DNA of 64,000 nt, taken from sequence record NC_054902.1; one strand, 5' to 3'. The position numbers and the translations under genes were made by a program. This document shows, piece by piece, positions 53,435 to 62,713 of this stretch. This DNA is from Enterobacteria phage Aplg8. The notes beneath the pieces were generated by a model. The model was not told the origin of the DNA, ran no database searches, and saw only the letters and a list, made by a program, of their open reading frames with translations. How positions within the stretch are numbered: the first letter of the stretch is position 1; every line of letters starts with the position of its first letter.

Positions 53435-53755
53435 TTATAGTGTAATCCATTCTCGTACTGTCTGAGTTACTACACGTTCACGGGGCTCGACTAGTTCAAC
53501 AGTCGGAACTGCATAATACCAGTCAGAATGATAAGAACCTGACCGAGATTCATTTACAGCCACATGTACATTATGTTTTGGACTAAAGTAAACACACTGA
53601 CGATATTGACATTTACCATCTTGCACCCAGTCTTCTATTTCGACAGGTTTAAGATAATCGGAAAAATCGAAATCATAGTTTTCCGAAAATGCATCATGGT
53701 CTTCGATGATTTCGCTCAGAACTGCATCAACATCTAATTTATTTTCAATAGTCAT
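53435..53755 (-). CDS. hypothetical protein
   Basis: 106-aa ORF. Confidence 0.5.
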   Translation of the reverse strand: MTIENKLDVDAVLSEIIEDHDAFSENYDFDFSDYLKPVEIEDWVQDGKCQYRQCVYFSPKHNVHVAVNESRSGSYHSDWYYAVPTVELVEPRERVVTQTVREWITL

Positions 53756-54658: not shown

Positions 54659-54941
54659 TTTCTTCTCGGTCAAATCGGTGTTTACAATGGCGACATTTAT
54701 AACGAAGATTATTAGTCTGCCAATGGACCAATTGCACCTGTTCAGTTCCACATTCAGGGCAATTAGGAACGTTTTTAGAAGCCCTTTCGCGACGTTCAAC
54801 CATAGCCATAATAGCATCCCATGCTGGAGGTTTAAAATCTAAATCGTCAGTAACTAGCAGTCCTTTATCAAACCCAGCGCATGGAGTCCATTCAGGAAAA
54901 TCTGAAGCTTCGGCAATATCTTCTAATAAACGCTTTTTCAT
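54645..54941 (-). CDS. zinc-ribbon protein
   Basis: 98 aa; CPECGTE...CRHCKH four-Cys ribbon. Confidence 0.5.
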
Positions 54942-55864
54942 TTCAGTACCTCAATAGCATCACGTAAACCATTTGCTTTGGCGGTTAAAGCCTTAATAAC
55001 TTTAGTATGCTCTTCAATCTGTTTTTCAACTTCAATCAAACGGGCACTGAGATATTCGCGTTCTTCTTTCATAGTATCATTCCCATGATTGGGCTTTGGC
55101 GTAGGTTTAAATTTATTAGGGTCCTTTAACTTAATAACAACTTTAGTTTCAAACAGTGAAAGACCATAATTCGTATTATCATCAAAGGATTCAACTACGT
55201 CCATTTTAGACAATAACGTACGAAGATTATAAGTCAAAGAACGAATCGTTTTATTATGTTTATTAGCTTCACATGGTTTCATATATGGAAGATTTTTATA
55301 TATTTCATGCGGAGCACAAACAATAATTGACAATTCAAATGGTCCATTCTGTGATGATGGAATGAATTTAGCCGTAACCCAATCTTTTACATTTACATTA
55401 ATAGTACGATCATCGCCATGACAAAACAGTCTACGAGAATGCTTAAAAAGCATATTCACATTATTATTAAATTCGTGTGAAAACTCACTGGCAAATTTTT
55501 CTTTACTATTTTTAGAAAACCATTCTTCTAAATAAGTTCTTTTCACGTCATTAATAATATTAAATGTAACAACATTAGCATTTGATACATTAGTCTCAAT
55601 GTAGCTTGGATACATAAATTTTTTAACATTATTAACAGCTATCACAGAAGATAGTAATCGGGAACGTTTGAACCACTCGAGCAAAGAACCAAGAGAATGT
55701 GAATACGCATTTTGTGTATCTTTACAAATATGGTTTTCCCATCCAATATAGTCTAAAAAATCACGAAGAATATTATTGATTGCTGCTCTGTGTCCTATCT
55801 GATAATTACGATGTTTAGTAATAAGACTGTCAAAATAATCAATATAATGTTTACGAGTTTTCAT
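54938..55864 (-). CDS. hypothetical protein, tandem paralogue A (C-terminal coiled coil)
   Basis: 308 aa; heptad-rich C-terminal 45 aa; weak similarity to next three ORFs. Confidence 0.6.
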   Translation of the reverse strand: MKTRKHYIDYFDSLITKHRNYQIGHRAAINNILRDFLDYIGWENHICKDTQNAYSHSLGSLLEWFKRSRLLSSVIAVNNVKKFMYPSYIETNVSNANVVTFNIINDVKRTYLEEWFSKNSKEKFASEFSHEFNNNVNMLFKHSRRLFCHGDDRTINVNVKDWVTAKFIPSSQNGPFELSIIVCAPHEIYKNLPYMKPCEANKHNKTIRSLTYNLRTLLSKMDVVESFDDNTNYGLSLFETKVVIKLKDPNKFKPTPKPNHGNDTMKEEREYLSARLIEVEKQIEEHTKVIKALTAKANGLRDAIEVLK

Positions 55865-55916
55865 GTTCTTCTCACTTGGTTAATGATTTATACTCCGAGC
55901 CATCCTTGGCTTTAAA

Positions 55917-56918
55917 TTACTTAATTAACTGTAAAGCTTGTTCAAGACGATCCAGGCGATTAACAGATTCTTCCCAAATCCTTTTAGCCTGCTCATATTC
56001 TTTCTGCGCTTTATTAGAAATTTCTAGAACTTCTTTATAAGCTTTTTCTAGTGCAATAACTTCTGGACGAATTTCTACAGGTTCAGGCGAATCATCAAGA
56101 CATTCCATTAGTTCCTCAAGGGTAGTTTCTTCTTTAGGAGTATTCACAATTTCATCACATTTTTGTTGGTAAATTTCTTTACTAGTAAGTGAATAAGTAC
56201 ATTTCACTTCACGAAGACTAACTACAATTTTATATCCTTCCCAACCGCATATATTCTTAAAAGGATATGTATGAATATTTTCTACTGTTTCCATACAAAG
56301 TAATGCGGTCTCTAATTGACGAGTTATAGTGCTAGCAATTGAGAAAAATTTATTAATGTTCTTTTGGTTAGTTTCTGGTGTAAAAAATCCATAATTCACA
56401 AAAATAGCTACTTTATTTTTATCAAGCTCATATTCTTTTATGATAATCATATCAGAAGCCAAAGGATGAATTTGACGATAATCGCCATAGCATAATTTAG
56501 AAGCTGATTTTAAAATTTGCTTTTTGAAAAGTCTGAAATTACTAATCCAACGACGAGTAAAAATATTCTCAGGGTCTTCTTTATTATTAAGATGATAAGA
56601 ATTAACATCACCGAACCAATTATATCCTACTACATCTTTAGTTCGTTTAATTTCTTTCCCAAAATTACCAAGAATATCCCGATTAACCAAATATGAAAGA
56701 AGACGAGACTCTTTAAAGGTTTTCTTGATAACATCTTTATCTACACGGCTAGAAATTTTACGAATTTCATGAATAAATTTAGTAGAAGAAACAATACTTG
56801 CATCAACACTATTGAGCCATTGATTGATAATAGAAAGAACGATATTTTGACCAAACATCGGTATAGCTTTATCATCAATAACGCTATTGAATGATTTGAT
56901 ATATTCGTTACGAGTCAT
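55917..56918 (-). CDS. hypothetical protein, tandem paralogue B
   Basis: 333 aa from MTRNEYIKSF with GAGGAG SD; coiled-coil C-terminus. Confidence 0.6.
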   Translation of the reverse strand: MTRNEYIKSFNSVIDDKAIPMFGQNIVLSIINQWLNSVDASIVSSTKFIHEIRKISSRVDKDVIKKTFKESRLLSYLVNRDILGNFGKEIKRTKDVVGYNWFGDVNSYHLNNKEDPENIFTRRWISNFRLFKKQILKSASKLCYGDYRQIHPLASDMIIIKEYELDKNKVAIFVNYGFFTPETNQKNINKFFSIASTITRQLETALLCMETVENIHTYPFKNICGWEGYKIVVSLREVKCTYSLTSKEIYQQKCDEIVNTPKEETTLEELMECLDDSPEPVEIRPEVIALEKAYKEVLEISNKAQKEYEQAKRIWEESVNRLDRLEQALQLIK

Positions 56919-56946
56919 ATTAATCTCCTCAGTAGAAAGTAAGAAC

Positions 56947-56976
56947 ATTATACCACATCCTTGTGGCAAAGTAAAC
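56947..56976 (-). promoter_or_regulatory. early promoter (GTTTAC / TATAAT)
   Basis: minus-strand GTTTACTTTGCCACAAGGATGTGGTATAAT. Confidence 0.7.
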
Positions 56977-57995
56977 TAGTTCAGTGCATTTAGTGCATTG
57001 TTCAGTTTAGAACGTTGCTTCGTGAGATTTTTGACTTTTTCTTGTGCTTTTTCTAGCATCTTTTCAGCTTCTAACACTTCATTGGTCGCTTTAACGAGTT
57101 CATCATCTACTGCCTTAAGGGACTTCTCAATCGCATCCGCGTGCCATTTTTCAACAGGTTTAAGACTCGGATTTTCAATAGGAAGAAAATTCACTTTATT
57201 GAATTTCCATGCATCTTTATTACCTGAACTATACATCCAAAATTTAGGATCATTTGACGAGTAATTAGATAAATTTAAGTTATCTTGCACTTCCTGCTTT
57301 TTCTCTTGCGGGACTTCGTCCTTTCTCAAAAAATCGTATTTAAATGAAACGATCATATCAAGTTCATATGTTGTCGTATCTAATTTAAATCGTTCGAAAT
57401 GCTGCGAAATCTTAGATTGAACAGCAGCAACAACATCCATATACTTAAATGCTTCTGTCAGCTGTGATTTAAGACATTCACAAATTGAAAGAGAATTTTT
57501 TGTATTAGGTTTAAAGCTAATTCGTGCAGTTCTATTATTTTCTTTTAATGGTCTTACTTCCATCTGAAGAGTATAACCATCAAATTTCAGGTTCTTTAAG
57601 TTAATATCAGAACCTTTTAATCGACTAGCCGTCGACAAAATTTGCTTTAATTGTTTACGGAATAGAGCAATAAATCTCCATTCAATACGATAATGATTTG
57701 GATTGAAAAATCCAGATGATAAATCGACCTTACTCTGACCAACACCTTGAACAAATAGAGGATTTTTATAATCAATAGTTTTACAGAAATCGGTGAGCTG
57801 CTCACGAGCAGTCATTTGAGTAATATACCCTGCTTCATTAAAATGACGTAACCATTCACTGCTATTCATATACTTAAAGTGAATGGAACTATTAACTCTA
57901 TCAGGGTCTAAATTATTTTGGCACAAAAATGTCATAACATCACGAGTATAGCTGGCATTACGAACCATATCTTCAATTTGAGAACGAGTTTTCAT
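56976..57995 (-). CDS. hypothetical protein, tandem paralogue C
   Basis: 339 aa; coiled-coil C-terminus. Confidence 0.6.
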   Translation of the reverse strand: MKTRSQIEDMVRNASYTRDVMTFLCQNNLDPDRVNSSIHFKYMNSSEWLRHFNEAGYITQMTAREQLTDFCKTIDYKNPLFVQGVGQSKVDLSSGFFNPNHYRIEWRFIALFRKQLKQILSTASRLKGSDINLKNLKFDGYTLQMEVRPLKENNRTARISFKPNTKNSLSICECLKSQLTEAFKYMDVVAAVQSKISQHFERFKLDTTTYELDMIVSFKYDFLRKDEVPQEKKQEVQDNLNLSNYSSNDPKFWMYSSGNKDAWKFNKVNFLPIENPSLKPVEKWHADAIEKSLKAVDDELVKATNEVLEAEKMLEKAQEKVKNLTKQRSKLNNALNALN

Positions 57996-58003
57996 GGTGT
58001 TCC

Positions 58004-58912
58004 TTAAGATTTAAGTAAATCAACAATTTTAATTAATTTTTCACGCTCAGATTTAGCTTTACTACTCAATCCAGATAGTCTGAAAATTTCATCGTCATAC
58101 TGTTGAATAGAAATATTCAGCTCTTCAATTTGCTTATTAAAATAATCAATTTGCTCAGAATGTTTTTCATTACTGCGAACTGGTACAGGTTTTGTAGGAA
58201 ATTTAGTTAAACTGGATTCATCCGGGCGATAAATTAAAATGCAATTTGAACCAATCGGGCATTTAGCACCAGATGAATATTCTAACGTTCCAGCTTCTTT
58301 TAAAACTTCAAAAGCTAAACAGAGATGATGCCCCATATTAACATAATCTGTAGAGCGAGCTCTGATATAATAATCATCGCCGCGAATACTAAATTTAAAG
58401 CATTTAAGGTCTTCTGTATTATTGGTCTTAAAAATCATTTGTTTATCTAGACCTTTAGCTAATCGAGCGCCTAATGCTAATAATCGTCGTTGATTTTCCC
58501 ACAAATCCGCAATCATTTGATCGAATGACAATTTCGGCATTAGTCTACCATAAAGGTCATATCCTTTATTATAATTGCGAAGAATTTCACTCGCGTTAAT
58601 ACGAGACAACGCTCCAATTTTATTAAGGGCTTTCATGATGCGATTAGATAAACCCATTCCAGACCCGTTTGTTCGTTGTAAATGTTTATCTAATCCAAAC
58701 CCAATATCAACTTTAAATTTATCTAAAATTTCAGCATGAACATCTCTGTCAATAACATTCAAATCCAAAGTTGGGTTAAATCTATGAAAAAATTTATCTG
58801 ACTCTCCACGACGAAGTACAGTCCATTCATTCAATTTTTTATTAACTAAAGATTTAATTACTGCATTGACATTATTAATTACTACTGACATATTTTCCTC
58901 ACTCAATTTCAA
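58004..58912 (-). CDS. hypothetical protein, tandem paralogue D
   Basis: 302 aa; coiled-coil C-terminus. Confidence 0.6.
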   Translation of the reverse strand: MKLSEENMSVVINNVNAVIKSLVNKKLNEWTVLRRGESDKFFHRFNPTLDLNVIDRDVHAEILDKFKVDIGFGLDKHLQRTNGSGMGLSNRIMKALNKIGALSRINASEILRNYNKGYDLYGRLMPKLSFDQMIADLWENQRRLLALGARLAKGLDKQMIFKTNNTEDLKCFKFSIRGDDYYIRARSTDYVNMGHHLCLAFEVLKEAGTLEYSSGAKCPIGSNCILIYRPDESSLTKFPTKPVPVRSNEKHSEQIDYFNKQIEELNISIQQYDDEIFRLSGLSSKAKSEREKLIKIVDLLKS

Positions 58913-59306
58913 TTTTACTAAATACGCAGAATATGATGGAAAAGACTATATAAGCACCACACACAGATTGAACTAATACCATTCCAAAGAACCAAACAAT
59001 ATTATCAAACAATGTCTGTTTTACGTCGAAAGGACGTAAACTTACAGTAATATTATCACCTTTTTCTATTGAAGAATACATCTCCGGTGAAATATATTCG
59101 CTAAATCTATAACCGTCATTTAGTTCATATACGGCAATAAACGATAAACTAGACCCCTTTCCTTGAGTTCCTGTAAAGGTATTAACTACAGTAACATCAT
59201 AATCTTTATAATGCATATAATCATTAATTGCGTAATAACCATATGCAATTACTATACATAAACAACATATCAATAAATTCAATCTTTTAATTATCAACTG
59301 TTTCAT
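58899..59306 (-). CDS. membrane protein (2 TM)
   Basis: 135 aa; hydrophobic N- and C-terminal segments. Confidence 0.5.
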   Translation of the reverse strand: MKQLIIKRLNLLICCLCIVIAYGYYAINDYMHYKDYDVTVVNTFTGTQGKGSSLSFIAVYELNDGYRFSEYISPEMYSSIEKGDNITVSLRPFDVKQTLFDNIVWFFGMVLVQSVCGAYIVFSIIFCVFSKIEIE

Positions 59307-59335: not shown

Positions 59336-59359
59336 ATTATACCATCCTTGGTATAAAGC
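59336..59359 (-). promoter_or_regulatory. MotA-dependent middle promoter
   Basis: minus-strand CGCTTTA - 12 bp - TATAAT. Confidence 0.5.
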
Positions 59360-59917: not shown

Positions 59918-59947
59918 ATAGTACCACAGAGGAACGGTCTTGTAAAC
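59918..59947 (-). promoter_or_regulatory. early promoter
   Basis: GTTTAC (59947..59942) - 18 bp - TACTAT (59923..59918). Confidence 0.55.
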
Positions 59948-60353: not shown

Positions 60354-61322
60354 TTATTTCAGAAGAGTAACCTCAGCGATTTCTTCCCAACCGTTTTTGT
60401 CGGTCATAATAAAGTCAGCAAGATAAAGAGCAGTACGCAGTGAAACATTGCGTAAACGATTAACATTGACTTTCATCCATGATAATGCTTTATAAGTTTC
60501 TTCATCAGAAAGACCGCGTTTTTGCATCATGTCAGTTGAAAGAATAACATCTTCAACCCTGACCATAATTTCTTCATTAGTGTGAACACCCAAATCCAAA
60601 TAAACTGAGCGGGACACTAATGCTTGTAAATGTGGAGCAAGTTTAGTACCACGGTCTAATTCGCGGTCAATATCAACGTTTGTGATAAAAACAATCGTTC
60701 CTTTAAATTCAAACTCACGCTCAATGCCTTTTTCTTCTAAGTAAGAAGATGCAGTGCTCCAGCAGACTTTACGGGTCTCTCCAGTGTCCAGAGCAGCTTT
60801 CAAAAGATTAAGAATGTCCATATCAGAGAAAACATCCACATCATCAATCAAAAGGACAGAATTCTCTTCACGATTATTCCAGAGCTGTTCATAAAGACCG
60901 ATACCAGAGATTTTACCGTTAATGCTTTTATATTCAATGTATCCAATATCATTTGCTTTATTTAAAGCTTTATCTAAAGAATACGTTTTACCAATGCCTG
61001 CCGCACCAGAGATAATTAATGAACGAATGTTTCCGTTAATAATACCATTCGTCATCATTCCCATAACATTAAATCTTTTATTAATGCGGGTTTTCATATC
61101 TTCATATGATTCTTTAACTTCTTCAACTTTTACACCATCATATGAAATGTCTGATTTGTAAACCCAAACACCGCGACGCTTACCGTCAATTTCAACAAAA
61201 ACTTTACCATCTCCTTGTGCATCCACCGGAGCATTATCTGGGAACCATTCGCCTAAGAGCTCAAAAGTTCCAGAGATTTCTTTGCCAAAGTAGATACCCT
61301 TATTGATAGTTACAGTTTTCAT
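60354..61322 (-). CDS. AAA+/P-loop ATPase of unknown function
   Basis: 322 aa; Walker A ISGAAGIGKT, Walker B-like LLIDDVD. Confidence 0.7.
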   Translation of the reverse strand: MKTVTINKGIYFGKEISGTFELLGEWFPDNAPVDAQGDGKVFVEIDGKRRGVWVYKSDISYDGVKVEEVKESYEDMKTRINKRFNVMGMMTNGIINGNIRSLIISGAAGIGKTYSLDKALNKANDIGYIEYKSINGKISGIGLYEQLWNNREENSVLLIDDVDVFSDMDILNLLKAALDTGETRKVCWSTASSYLEEKGIEREFEFKGTIVFITNVDIDRELDRGTKLAPHLQALVSRSVYLDLGVHTNEEIMVRVEDVILSTDMMQKRGLSDEETYKALSWMKVNVNRLRNVSLRTALYLADFIMTDKNGWEEIAEVTLLK

Positions 61323-61699: not shown

Positions 61700-62713
61700 T
61701 CATTTATAATAACTTCGGTGGTTTTCAAGATAGACCTTCTCAAGGAAGTCATCCCAGAAACTCATGTCTACTGTTTTAGGCATACCGTTCTTAGAAGCTT
61801 CAGTAGATGCTGCTTCTACTTGATCGACCACATCTTCTAAAAACTCTTGAACAGTTTTAAATGGATGCTTACCCAGCTTCACGTCGAGAATAAATGGAGC
61901 ATCTTGGAGTGGATAAACCAAGTCACCAGTTTTGTAAATTTCCAATAGTTGGAGTCCACCACGGCAAGCATGACTCAGAGCTTTCCAGTCAATACCTTCA
62001 TTGGCTTCGGCCTTACGAGCACGTTCACCATATTCAGCATCTAATTTGTTCAGTGACTGCTTAAGCTCAATAAGAGAAAGCGTTGTCTGATATTTACGAC
62101 CCAGCACTGTATAGAACGTTTGTGGACCTGTTTTCTCATGATTATGGAATACCCATTCACAGAACTCGTTTTCTGGAAGACGATGCTTAATATCTTCAAC
62201 TTTAATGCGACGCTGCTTAATAGAACCATCTTCTTGGTAATCAACCCATTGCTCAGGGATTTGATTAACTACTTTCAATACATCGCGTAATGCAGCCAAA
62301 CGAGAACCCTTGACACCATATTTAGAAGCTTGCTTGCGAACATATCCTAAATAGGATTTCATGTTAGTCGTATAAAAACGAGAACGGTTGTCTTGAATAA
62401 ACTTCCACACGTCAGGCAAATCAGATTTAACCACTAGTTCAGGTGGAGTGTGAAGCATATCCAATGCTACAGTTTCACCATCTGCTGCTAATTTAAAGAA
62501 ATATTTAAGACTGTATAGTTCATGGTCAATATCATCTTTAGTGTTTTTAGATGATGTGTTGTTAGTGTTTTTACTCATATGCTCTTTAACATTTCCGATA
62601 AGAATATCGCGAGCAGGAGGAACAAAGATTTCTTTAAAATCTACATCAGATTCTGGGGTAGAAGTTCCATAAAGATGACTACCAAAATAGCTTTTCATTA
62701 CTGTTTTCATCAT
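61700..62713 (-). CDS. minimal (MNT/pol-beta-type) nucleotidyltransferase domain protein
   Basis: 337 aa; N-terminal motif FGSHLYGTSTPESDVDF fits the GS-x9-13-DxD NTase signature. Confidence 0.6.
   Translation of the reverse strand: MMKTVMKSYFGSHLYGTSTPESDVDFKEIFVPPARDILIGNVKEHMSKNTNNTSSKNTKDDIDHELYSLKYFFKLAADGETVALDMLHTPPELVVKSDLPDVWKFIQDNRSRFYTTNMKSYLGYVRKQASKYGVKGSRLAALRDVLKVVNQIPEQWVDYQEDGSIKQRRIKVEDIKHRLPENEFCEWVFHNHEKTGPQTFYTVLGRKYQTTLSLIELKQSLNKLDAEYGERARKAEANEGIDWKALSHACRGGLQLLEIYKTGDLVYPLQDAPFILDVKLGKHPFKTVQEFLEDVVDQVEAASTEASKNGMPKTVDMSFWDDFLEKVYLENHRSYYK

Follow-up and report, generated by a model that had tools for sequence, protein, structure and literature searches.

In the genome of Enterobacteria phage Aplg8 (NC_054902.1), four consecutive genes on the minus strand, the orthologues of T4 nrdC.3, nrdC.4, nrdC.5 and nrdC.6, encode homologous proteins of one superfamily. 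The analysed stretch of this genome, here called the window, is 64,000 nucleotides long, and the genes occupy its positions 54938–58912. Profile comparisons confirmed that the four genes are tandem paralogues. With moderate confidence we read the array as a dispensable counter-defence module in which the NrdC.5 protein would bind the host protein Dsr1 and its siblings would block other defence proteins. The genes and one of their functions were already known; what is new here is that all four are related, how their domains are arranged and how far the family extends.

The window belongs to a Tequatrovirus. The 3,975-bp array shares 99.2% DNA identity with phage vB_EcoM-S1P5QW and 96.2% with T4, and its identity to Tequatrovirus genomes is 96–99%. 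The T4T record annotates nrdC.3, nrdC.4, nrdC.5 and nrdC.6 under the matched stretch, and the four open reading frames (ORFs) are the orthologues of these genes (Table 1). NrdC.5 is 92% identical in amino acids to the T4 protein.

Relationship of the four proteins

Pairwise BLASTP among the four proteins detected only the NrdC.3/NrdC.4 pair (E 0.004), the other pairs being noise, and profile comparison was therefore needed. Family alignments for the profiles were built from three database searches. HHalign related NrdC.3 to NrdC.4 (98.1%, E 8e-14) and NrdC.5 to the NrdC.3+4 alignment (93.7%, E 1.9e-7), the latter alignment covering 152 columns within the globular part (columns 45–200). Judged by its profile, NrdC.5 is a member of the superfamily. 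When NrdC.6 was compared with NrdC.3, NrdC.4, NrdC.5 or NrdC.3+4, the matches were below threshold (0.4–40%), although the alignments were collinear and paired identical landmarks every time.

Because NrdC.6 stayed below threshold against single families, a bridge family was sought. The bridge is a single-copy Karamvirus protein (CC31p082 and relatives), whose family matched NrdC.6 at 82–93% (E 1e-5 to 4e-7), NrdC.3+4 at 73% (E 3e-5, 237 columns) and NrdC.5 at 54%. The merged Karamvirus and NrdC.6 profile matched the merged NrdC.3+4+5 profile at 97.0% (E 9e-11) over 282 columns, essentially the full length. Reversed-profile controls gave E values of 0.15–0.67. In this profile–profile test of a single superfamily, significant similarity covers the globular part and not the coil alone. 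Identity among the four proteins is 13–27%.

A first-pass annotation of the window, made from the sequence alone, had proposed that the four genes are tandem paralogues, and HHalign together with the merged profiles does relate all four proteins. It had also quoted one local segment from each protein as similar. The segments SRRLFCHGDDRTINV (NrdC.3), SKLCYGDYRQIHP (NrdC.4) and SRLKGSDINLKNL (NrdC.5) are mutually aligned by HHalign. The segment chosen from NrdC.6, FKFSIRGDDYYIR (residue 172), is not equivalent to them; the homologous one is GARLAKGLDKQMIF (residue 148).

NrdC.8, a 175-residue protein with a C-terminal helix of its own, was considered as a fifth paralogue and rejected (HHalign ≤1.4%, heptad signal not significant). 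Searching the representatives exhaustively with the NrdC.5 profile gave only 13 matches, none of them cross-family, and one of these, P0267, was discarded as a spurious repeat protein.

Domain plan and probable oligomerisation

NrdC.4 was modelled with AlphaFold from the NrdC.3+4 alignment and NrdC.6 from its own family, so that the two models were independent; a combined four-family alignment was deliberately avoided lest the models be forced alike. The mean predicted local distance difference test value (pLDDT) is 84 for NrdC.4 and 78 for NrdC.6, and the predicted template modelling score (pTM) is 0.68 and 0.65, respectively. The NrdC.4 model consists of a helical N-domain, an alpha/beta sandwich, a low-confidence linker and a helix at residues 285–332. 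Secondary-structure elements follow the same order in both models. A helical bundle at the N-terminus leads into a broken long helix with a short helix (NrdC.4 119–148, NrdC.6 123–150), followed by a beta hairpin, a further helix (NrdC.4 185–208, NrdC.6 186–199) and another hairpin, after which come a linker of low confidence and the long terminal helix. In all the families the central helix is followed by a conserved G-D turn.

Foldseek searches of BFVD with the NrdC.4 model found NrdC.3 (E 8e-8) and NrdC.6 of phage JS10 (E 2.4e-4, probability 1.0). The NrdC.4 and NrdC.6 models both matched the same uncharacterised proteins of 300–370 residues (E 1e-7 to 1e-4) from T4-like phages of Pectobacterium, Enterobacter, Klebsiella, Acinetobacter, Yersinia and Serratia. 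Template modelling (TM) scores were modest (0.36–0.41), and generic coiled-coil proteins were not matched by either model in BFVD.

The C-terminal coiled coils of the first-pass annotation were found in all four proteins, and the C-termini that it quoted are exact. In the family alignments, a single register of 6–8 heptads runs without a break in each protein and ends 1–2 residues before the C-terminus. Hydrophobic occupancy is 0.80–0.94 at positions a and d and 0.20–0.27 elsewhere (column-permutation p≤0.0005 for all four). All four proteins thus exceed the minimum of four continuous heptads with hydrophobic a/d positions that was set for a coiled coil, and the NrdC.4 and NrdC.6 models show the helix. 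The terminal helix of the NrdC.4 model is 48 residues long; that of NrdC.6 is modelled as helices 242–271 and 277–294, split at an SGLSS segment (Gly kink). A cruder single-sequence heptad scan was clearly positive for NrdC.3 and NrdC.5 only, and the core of the NrdC.4 coil includes Tyr, Trp and Ser. The coiled coil would most likely make each protein a homo-oligomer.

Family assignments and the thioredoxin name

NrdC.5 matches PF23882 with 405 bits (E 2.5e-121) across profile positions 1–307 of 307. The gathering score of this family is 30 bits, and NrdC.3 (12.7 bits), NrdC.4 and NrdC.6 all fall below it. The family phrog_1435 is matched end to end by NrdC.3 (E 8e-100) and NrdC.4 (E 3e-167), and phrog_2257 is matched over its full length by NrdC.6 (E 5e-152). 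NrdC.3 and NrdC.4 already form one family both in PHROGs (phrog_1435) and in the newer Pfam release (PF26897); the latter assignment is made through homologue annotation, PF26897 being annotated on 94 of 94 homologues. PF26899 is annotated on all of the 105 NrdC.6 homologues.

Matches to BrxC, PgrA and xenorhabdolysin in Pfam, NCBIfam and PADLOC were rejected as coil noise, and PDB sequence searches with the four proteins gave nothing below E 0.07. Across Pfam, NCBIfam, PADLOC and the PDB sequence searches, the proteins showed neither an enzyme domain nor one that binds nucleic acid. By composition all four proteins are soluble, without a hydrophobic segment. Three of them have isoelectric points (pI) of about 9.1–9.2; NrdC.4 is near neutral (pI 7.5).

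Many GenBank records name the four homologues “thioredoxin” or “thioredoxin, phage-associated”. A thioredoxin or glutaredoxin identity was rejected: none of the four proteins has a CxxC motif, none has such a match in Pfam or NCBIfam, and the NrdC.4 and NrdC.6 models fold differently. The product name is a carry-over from the adjacent nrdC gene and a widespread misannotation.

Proposed counter-defence role and alternative readings

A T4 clone with a deletion that includes nrdC.5 failed to plate on ECOR17 and on MG1655 with the dsr1 of ECOR17, and nrdC.5 expressed alone restored plating of the deletion mutant on the dsr1 host (Srikant et al. 2022, eLife, PMC9391042). Viable T4 without nrdC.1–6 was recovered in a genome-reduction study (PMC9825161), which agrees with the earlier placing of the array in a non-essential region. 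A further gene of the neighbourhood encodes gp49.2, which is reported to inhibit OLD; the 2026 report concerns the T6 homologue, described as inhibiting the defence nuclease OLD (PMC13096335). In the window this gene is a 106-residue ORF located 1.2 kb from the array and 63% identical to CC31 49.2. Together with nrdC.5, this brings the published counter-defence genes around nrdC to at least two.

In the reading that we favour, nrdC.3, nrdC.4, nrdC.5 and nrdC.6 are anciently duplicated tandem copies from a single gene family of T4-like phages, and each would give a soluble, mostly basic early protein of 34–40 kDa. The proteins would combine a helical bundle at the N-terminus, a conserved central domain of helix and alpha/beta sandwich, a linker with little order and, at the C-terminus, a coiled coil whose 6–8 heptads would assemble a homo-oligomer with head, linker and stalk. 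NrdC.5 would neutralise the host Dsr1 SIR2 NADase, most likely because the oligomer binds Dsr1 stoichiometrically, so that Dsr1 would not be switched on in infection. NrdC.3, NrdC.4 and NrdC.6 would probably act likewise on other defence proteins or on Dsr1-like variants. We infer both the direct NrdC.5–Dsr1 binding and the anti-defence role of the three siblings. Since nrdC.5 counters Dsr1 and the siblings are homologous to it, nrdC.3, nrdC.4 and nrdC.6 are specific anti-defence candidates. We also counted in favour of this reading the ratios of nonsynonymous to synonymous substitution (dN/dS), which are higher than those of the neighbours, the early-promoter-like sites, the soluble composition and the anti-OLD gp49.2 next door.

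Several points weigh against it. Experimental support is limited to nrdC.5 and to one complementation experiment, and oligomerisation is deduced from heptads in monomer models. The average dN/dS of 0.06–0.28 is by itself no indication of an arms race. HHalign of NrdC.6 against each single family was sub-threshold (E 3e-4 to 0.12), so that its homology rests on the bridge family, the merged profiles and Foldseek, and neither the NrdC.4 nor the NrdC.6 model matched an identifiable NrdC.5 entry in BFVD. Dsr1 was still called poorly characterised as of 2026.

In the searchable library, literature searches for nrdC.3, nrdC.4 and nrdC.6 yielded a genome announcement alone, with no function, and those for NrdC.5 under a new name or for the mechanism of Dsr1 inhibition gave nothing beyond the 2022 paper. 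The first-pass suggestion of a host-interaction or anti-defence locus finds support in the nrdC.5 rescue, the dispensable block and the anti-OLD gp49.2; among the array genes, functional tests cover nrdC.5.

A broader version, which we consider unlikely, is that the superfamily is a modular “anti-sensor” platform of the Straboviridae, the paralogues and alleles of which plug the ligand-binding grooves of different pattern-recognition defence proteins. A constant oligomerising stalk and a conserved core would carry variable N-terminal helices, and one target class would be the tetratricopeptide repeat (TPR)-type sensors shared by Dsr1 and Avs7. The TPR sensor of Dsr1 is reported to recognise major capsid proteins (2026 preprint). 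If this version were true, the four T4 genes and the two allele types of nrdC.3 would be the phage equivalent of the immune-evasion genes that have expanded into families in large eukaryotic DNA viruses.

The similar coiled coils could instead join the paralogues into a single hetero-oligomeric complex that works as one unit, perhaps as a scaffold or a multivalent inhibitor, and not as separate inhibitors with one target each. At least three paralogues do occur together in a fixed order in four genera, all four proteins share one heptad register when counted from the C-terminus, as well as the ending ...L(L/I)K, and nrdC.6 and nrdC.5 lie 8 nt apart and are apparently translationally coupled. 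However, several genera carry a single copy, some natural variants lack nrdC.4 (P0056) or have it truncated (L007, 54% coverage), and the core a/d residues differ considerably among the paralogues. Moreover, plasmid-borne nrdC.5 alone rescued the T4 mutant, although the paper is silent on whether that phage still had the other paralogues (PMC9391042). We regard such a complex as improbable.

An equally low chance is given to the proteins being host-takeover or metabolic factors, acting for instance in NAD+ homeostasis, transcription or translation, with the rescue from Dsr1 being indirect. Dsr1 is also countered indirectly by the NAD+-restoring pathways NARP1/2/3. The near-invariance of residues 60–180 in Tequatrovirus would fit an active site, or a host target that is itself conserved, and the conserved G-D turn and the basic character of three of the four proteins point the same way. 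Against this, the domain searches described above detected no enzyme or nucleic-acid-binding domain, and the block can be deleted with viability kept (PMC9825161).

That only nrdC.3, nrdC.4 and nrdC.5 are true paralogues, NrdC.6 resembling them through coil or compositional bias and a common small fold, is very improbable: the sub-threshold single-family matches (28.7%, E 6e-4; 0.5%, E 0.12) and modest TM-scores that favour it are outweighed by the Karamvirus bridge and the full-length merged-profile match (97%, E 9e-11) that includes the globular part, the collinear landmarks, the far lower reversed controls, the helix-ending NrdC.8 that scores nothing, the Foldseek top matches that are all same-sized Straboviridae proteins and not generic coiled coils, the identical order of secondary structure and the conserved position in the array.

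Among the closest known systems, T4 NrdC.5 (PF23882, anti-Dsr1) corresponds to the window nrdC.5 in sequence (about 92% amino-acid identity, full-length PF23882), in genomic position and in being an early, non-essential gene; the other three ORFs differ from it in their 13–27% identity and in their separate Pfam families (PF26897, PF26899). DSAD1 of an SPbeta-group phage disables the SIR2-domain NADase sensor DSR2 by binding it in competition with the phage trigger (PMC10981675, PMC11087589), which is the mode of action proposed for NrdC.5. Unlike NrdC.5, it targets DSR2 in another host clade and has no tandem paralogue array, and the two are without sequence relationship (PDB searches at E≤1 gave nothing relevant). 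T4 Dmd, TifA, the AdfA island and Gp49.2 are also small-to-medium early dispensable genes of hyperplastic regions, and each counters one host system. However, they are unrelated singletons, whereas the array would repeat one fold in up to four copies with a coiled-coil tail. Tail terminator or tail completion proteins, with a lambda gpU-like alpha/beta sandwich, are also named among the closest known systems.

T4 is the reference phage, and three of its “hypothetical proteins” become candidates for new anti-defence activities. The family is defined across at least seven genera of T4-like phages with hosts that include Escherichia, Klebsiella, Enterobacter and Acinetobacter. Its domain plan of variable N-terminus, invariant core, linker and coiled coil can guide mutagenesis and structural work on Dsr1 inhibition.

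Spread and evolution of the array

The family is restricted to T4-like phages (Straboviridae), where 1–4 copies lie between nrdC.11 and nrdC. By tblastn the four types were found in 552–740 of about 1,500 Straboviridae records with nrdC.11. The gene order is 6-5-4-3 in Tequatrovirus, 6-5-4 in Gaprivervirus and Dhakavirus and 6-5-3 in Mosigvirus; Karamvirus, Jiaodavirus and an Acinetobacter Lazarusvirus have a single copy. DNA-level repeats between copies were limited to matches of 15–23 nt, so the genes were duplicated long ago, before the genera diverged.

The dN/dS was measured against four related contigs, and the viral-contig scans returned few loci (5 and 2), which limits the sampling. 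Average values were 0.14–0.28 for nrdC.3, nrdC.4 and nrdC.5 and 0.06–0.15 for nrdC.6. Those of nrdC, nrdC.8, nrdC.10 and nrdC.11 were lower than those of the array genes, at 0–0.08. The array is under relaxed purifying selection, and positive selection was not demonstrated. The paralogues had been called diversified, which is correct for their ancient divergence (13–27% identity) but not in the sense of overt positive selection. Within Tequatrovirus, variability is focused in the first 20–60 residues and in the linker before the coil, and residues 60–180 are almost invariant.

Among close Tequatrovirus genomes nrdC.3 is dimorphic: 135 records carry the window type (≥90% amino-acid identity) and 329 the other type. 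The two types are about 61% identical, with synonymous divergence (dS) above 1. The adjacent nrdC.2 (64% identity between types) switches together with nrdC.3, and the dimorphism looks like allele replacement by recombination.

Rearranged forms of the array genes were also observed. In a 167-kb phage contig (P0056), the middle of nrdC.5 is fused in frame to the C-terminal half of nrdC.3 (junction ...AWKFNKVN|MLFKH...) and nrdC.4 is deleted; evidently recombination between paralogues, or short microhomologies between them, reshapes the array. The nrdC.6 of Shigella phage Sf25 (P0058) has an 83-residue internal tandem duplication, which runs from the second hairpin through the linker into the first heptads, and encodes 378 residues compared with 295. 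A 173-residue protein (P0261) is identical in its last ~55 residues to the coiled coil of the window NrdC.5, and its N-terminal part is unrelated; either a deletion in a phage genome fused the two parts, or the assembly is chimeric. Truncated or split nrdC.4 occurs in some Tequatrovirus genomes (the IMG/VR contig L007 with 54% coverage, and P0204 and P0219), with fragments of 177–211 residues, and individual paralogues are therefore lost in nature.

Gene starts, promoter-like sites and neighbouring genes

The first-pass annotation had listed four consecutive ORFs of 308, 333, 339 and 302 residues. Their positions were borne out, and one length is probably to be revised. The longest nrdC.6 ORF (302 residues, 58004–58912) opens with TTG at 58912, but the true product is probably the 295-residue form that starts at ATG, because homologues begin at the counterpart of Met8 (MSVVINN / MSQAIN) and GAGGA stands 6 nt upstream of that ATG. 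A TTG-extended 350-residue form of nrdC.4 is unlikely, since a promoter-like site occupies the extension and homologues start with MTRNEY.

Table 1. Positions of the array genes, their heptad helices and nearby features in the window.
Feature	Position	Strand	Basis or remark
nrdC.3 orthologue, 308 aa	54938–55864	minus	ORF; T4T annotation; phrog_1435
nrdC.4 orthologue, 333 aa (ATG start)	55917–56918	minus	ORF; phrog_1435
nrdC.5 orthologue, 339 aa	56976–57995	minus	ORF; PF23882 (DUF7235)
nrdC.6 orthologue, 295 aa from ATG at 58891 (probable start)	58004–58891	minus	phrog_2257; PF26899 homologues
NrdC.3 heptad helix, residues 266–308	54941–55069	minus	6 heptads; a/d 0.83 vs 0.27; p<0.0005
NrdC.4 heptad helix, residues 285–333	55920–56066	minus	7 heptads; a/d 0.85 vs 0.26; p<0.0005
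NrdC.5 heptad helix, residues 284–339	56979–57146	minus	8 heptads; a/d 0.94 vs 0.20; p<0.0005
NrdC.6 heptad helix, residues 252–302 (302-aa numbering)	58007–58159	minus	7 heptads; a/d 0.80 vs 0.25; p=0.0005
Early-promoter-like site GTTTAC-17-TGgTATAAT, nrdC.5/nrdC.4 gap	56947–56975	minus	consensus scan; sequence reading; also written TTTACT-17-TATAAT with TG
Gap with -10-type element before nrdC.3	55865–55916	minus	TATAAT/TATAAA type
-10-type element before nrdC.7	about 59336–59341	minus	TATAAT/TATAAA type
Gap with -10-type element before nrdC.8	59918–59946	minus	TATAAT/TATAAA type
gp49.2	53435–53755	minus	106-aa ORF
nrdC.2 and nrdC.3, dimorphic segment	54645–55864		comparison of Tequatrovirus genomes
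Counterpart of the P0056 fusion	about 55450–57590		phage contig
nrdC.7	58899–59306		membrane protein
nrdC.10	60354–61322	minus	weak Pfam matches
nrdC.11	61700–62713	minus	PF10127

The promoter-like sites are consensus matches only, and their total in the region is not above that of shuffled sequences. TATAAT- or TATAAA-type -10 elements lie in the gaps before nrdC.3, nrdC.4, nrdC.7 and nrdC.8; TG precedes the element in front of nrdC.4, nrdC.7 and nrdC.8, and a GTTTAC -35 element is present before nrdC.4 and nrdC.8. The motif CAAGGATG is common to the spacers before nrdC.3, nrdC.4 and nrdC.7. Because each gap has its own -10-type element, the region may comprise several separate early transcription units, as these sequence matches suggest.

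In Gaprivervirus and Dhakavirus (VR7, WG01), a 71-residue ORF predicted to encode a membrane protein lies between nrdC.6 and nrdC.5 (L001 4733–4948, L002 4724–4939). In the window, the membrane protein gene nrdC.7 is immediately upstream of nrdC.6. The array is also flanked by nrdC.10 and nrdC.11, which are much more tightly constrained than the array (dN/dS ≤0.07). By weak Pfam matches NrdC.10 is a P-loop AAA/STAND-like ATPase. NrdC.11 is an RlaP-type nucleotidyltransferase and the best conserved protein of the region, found in 1,502 records.

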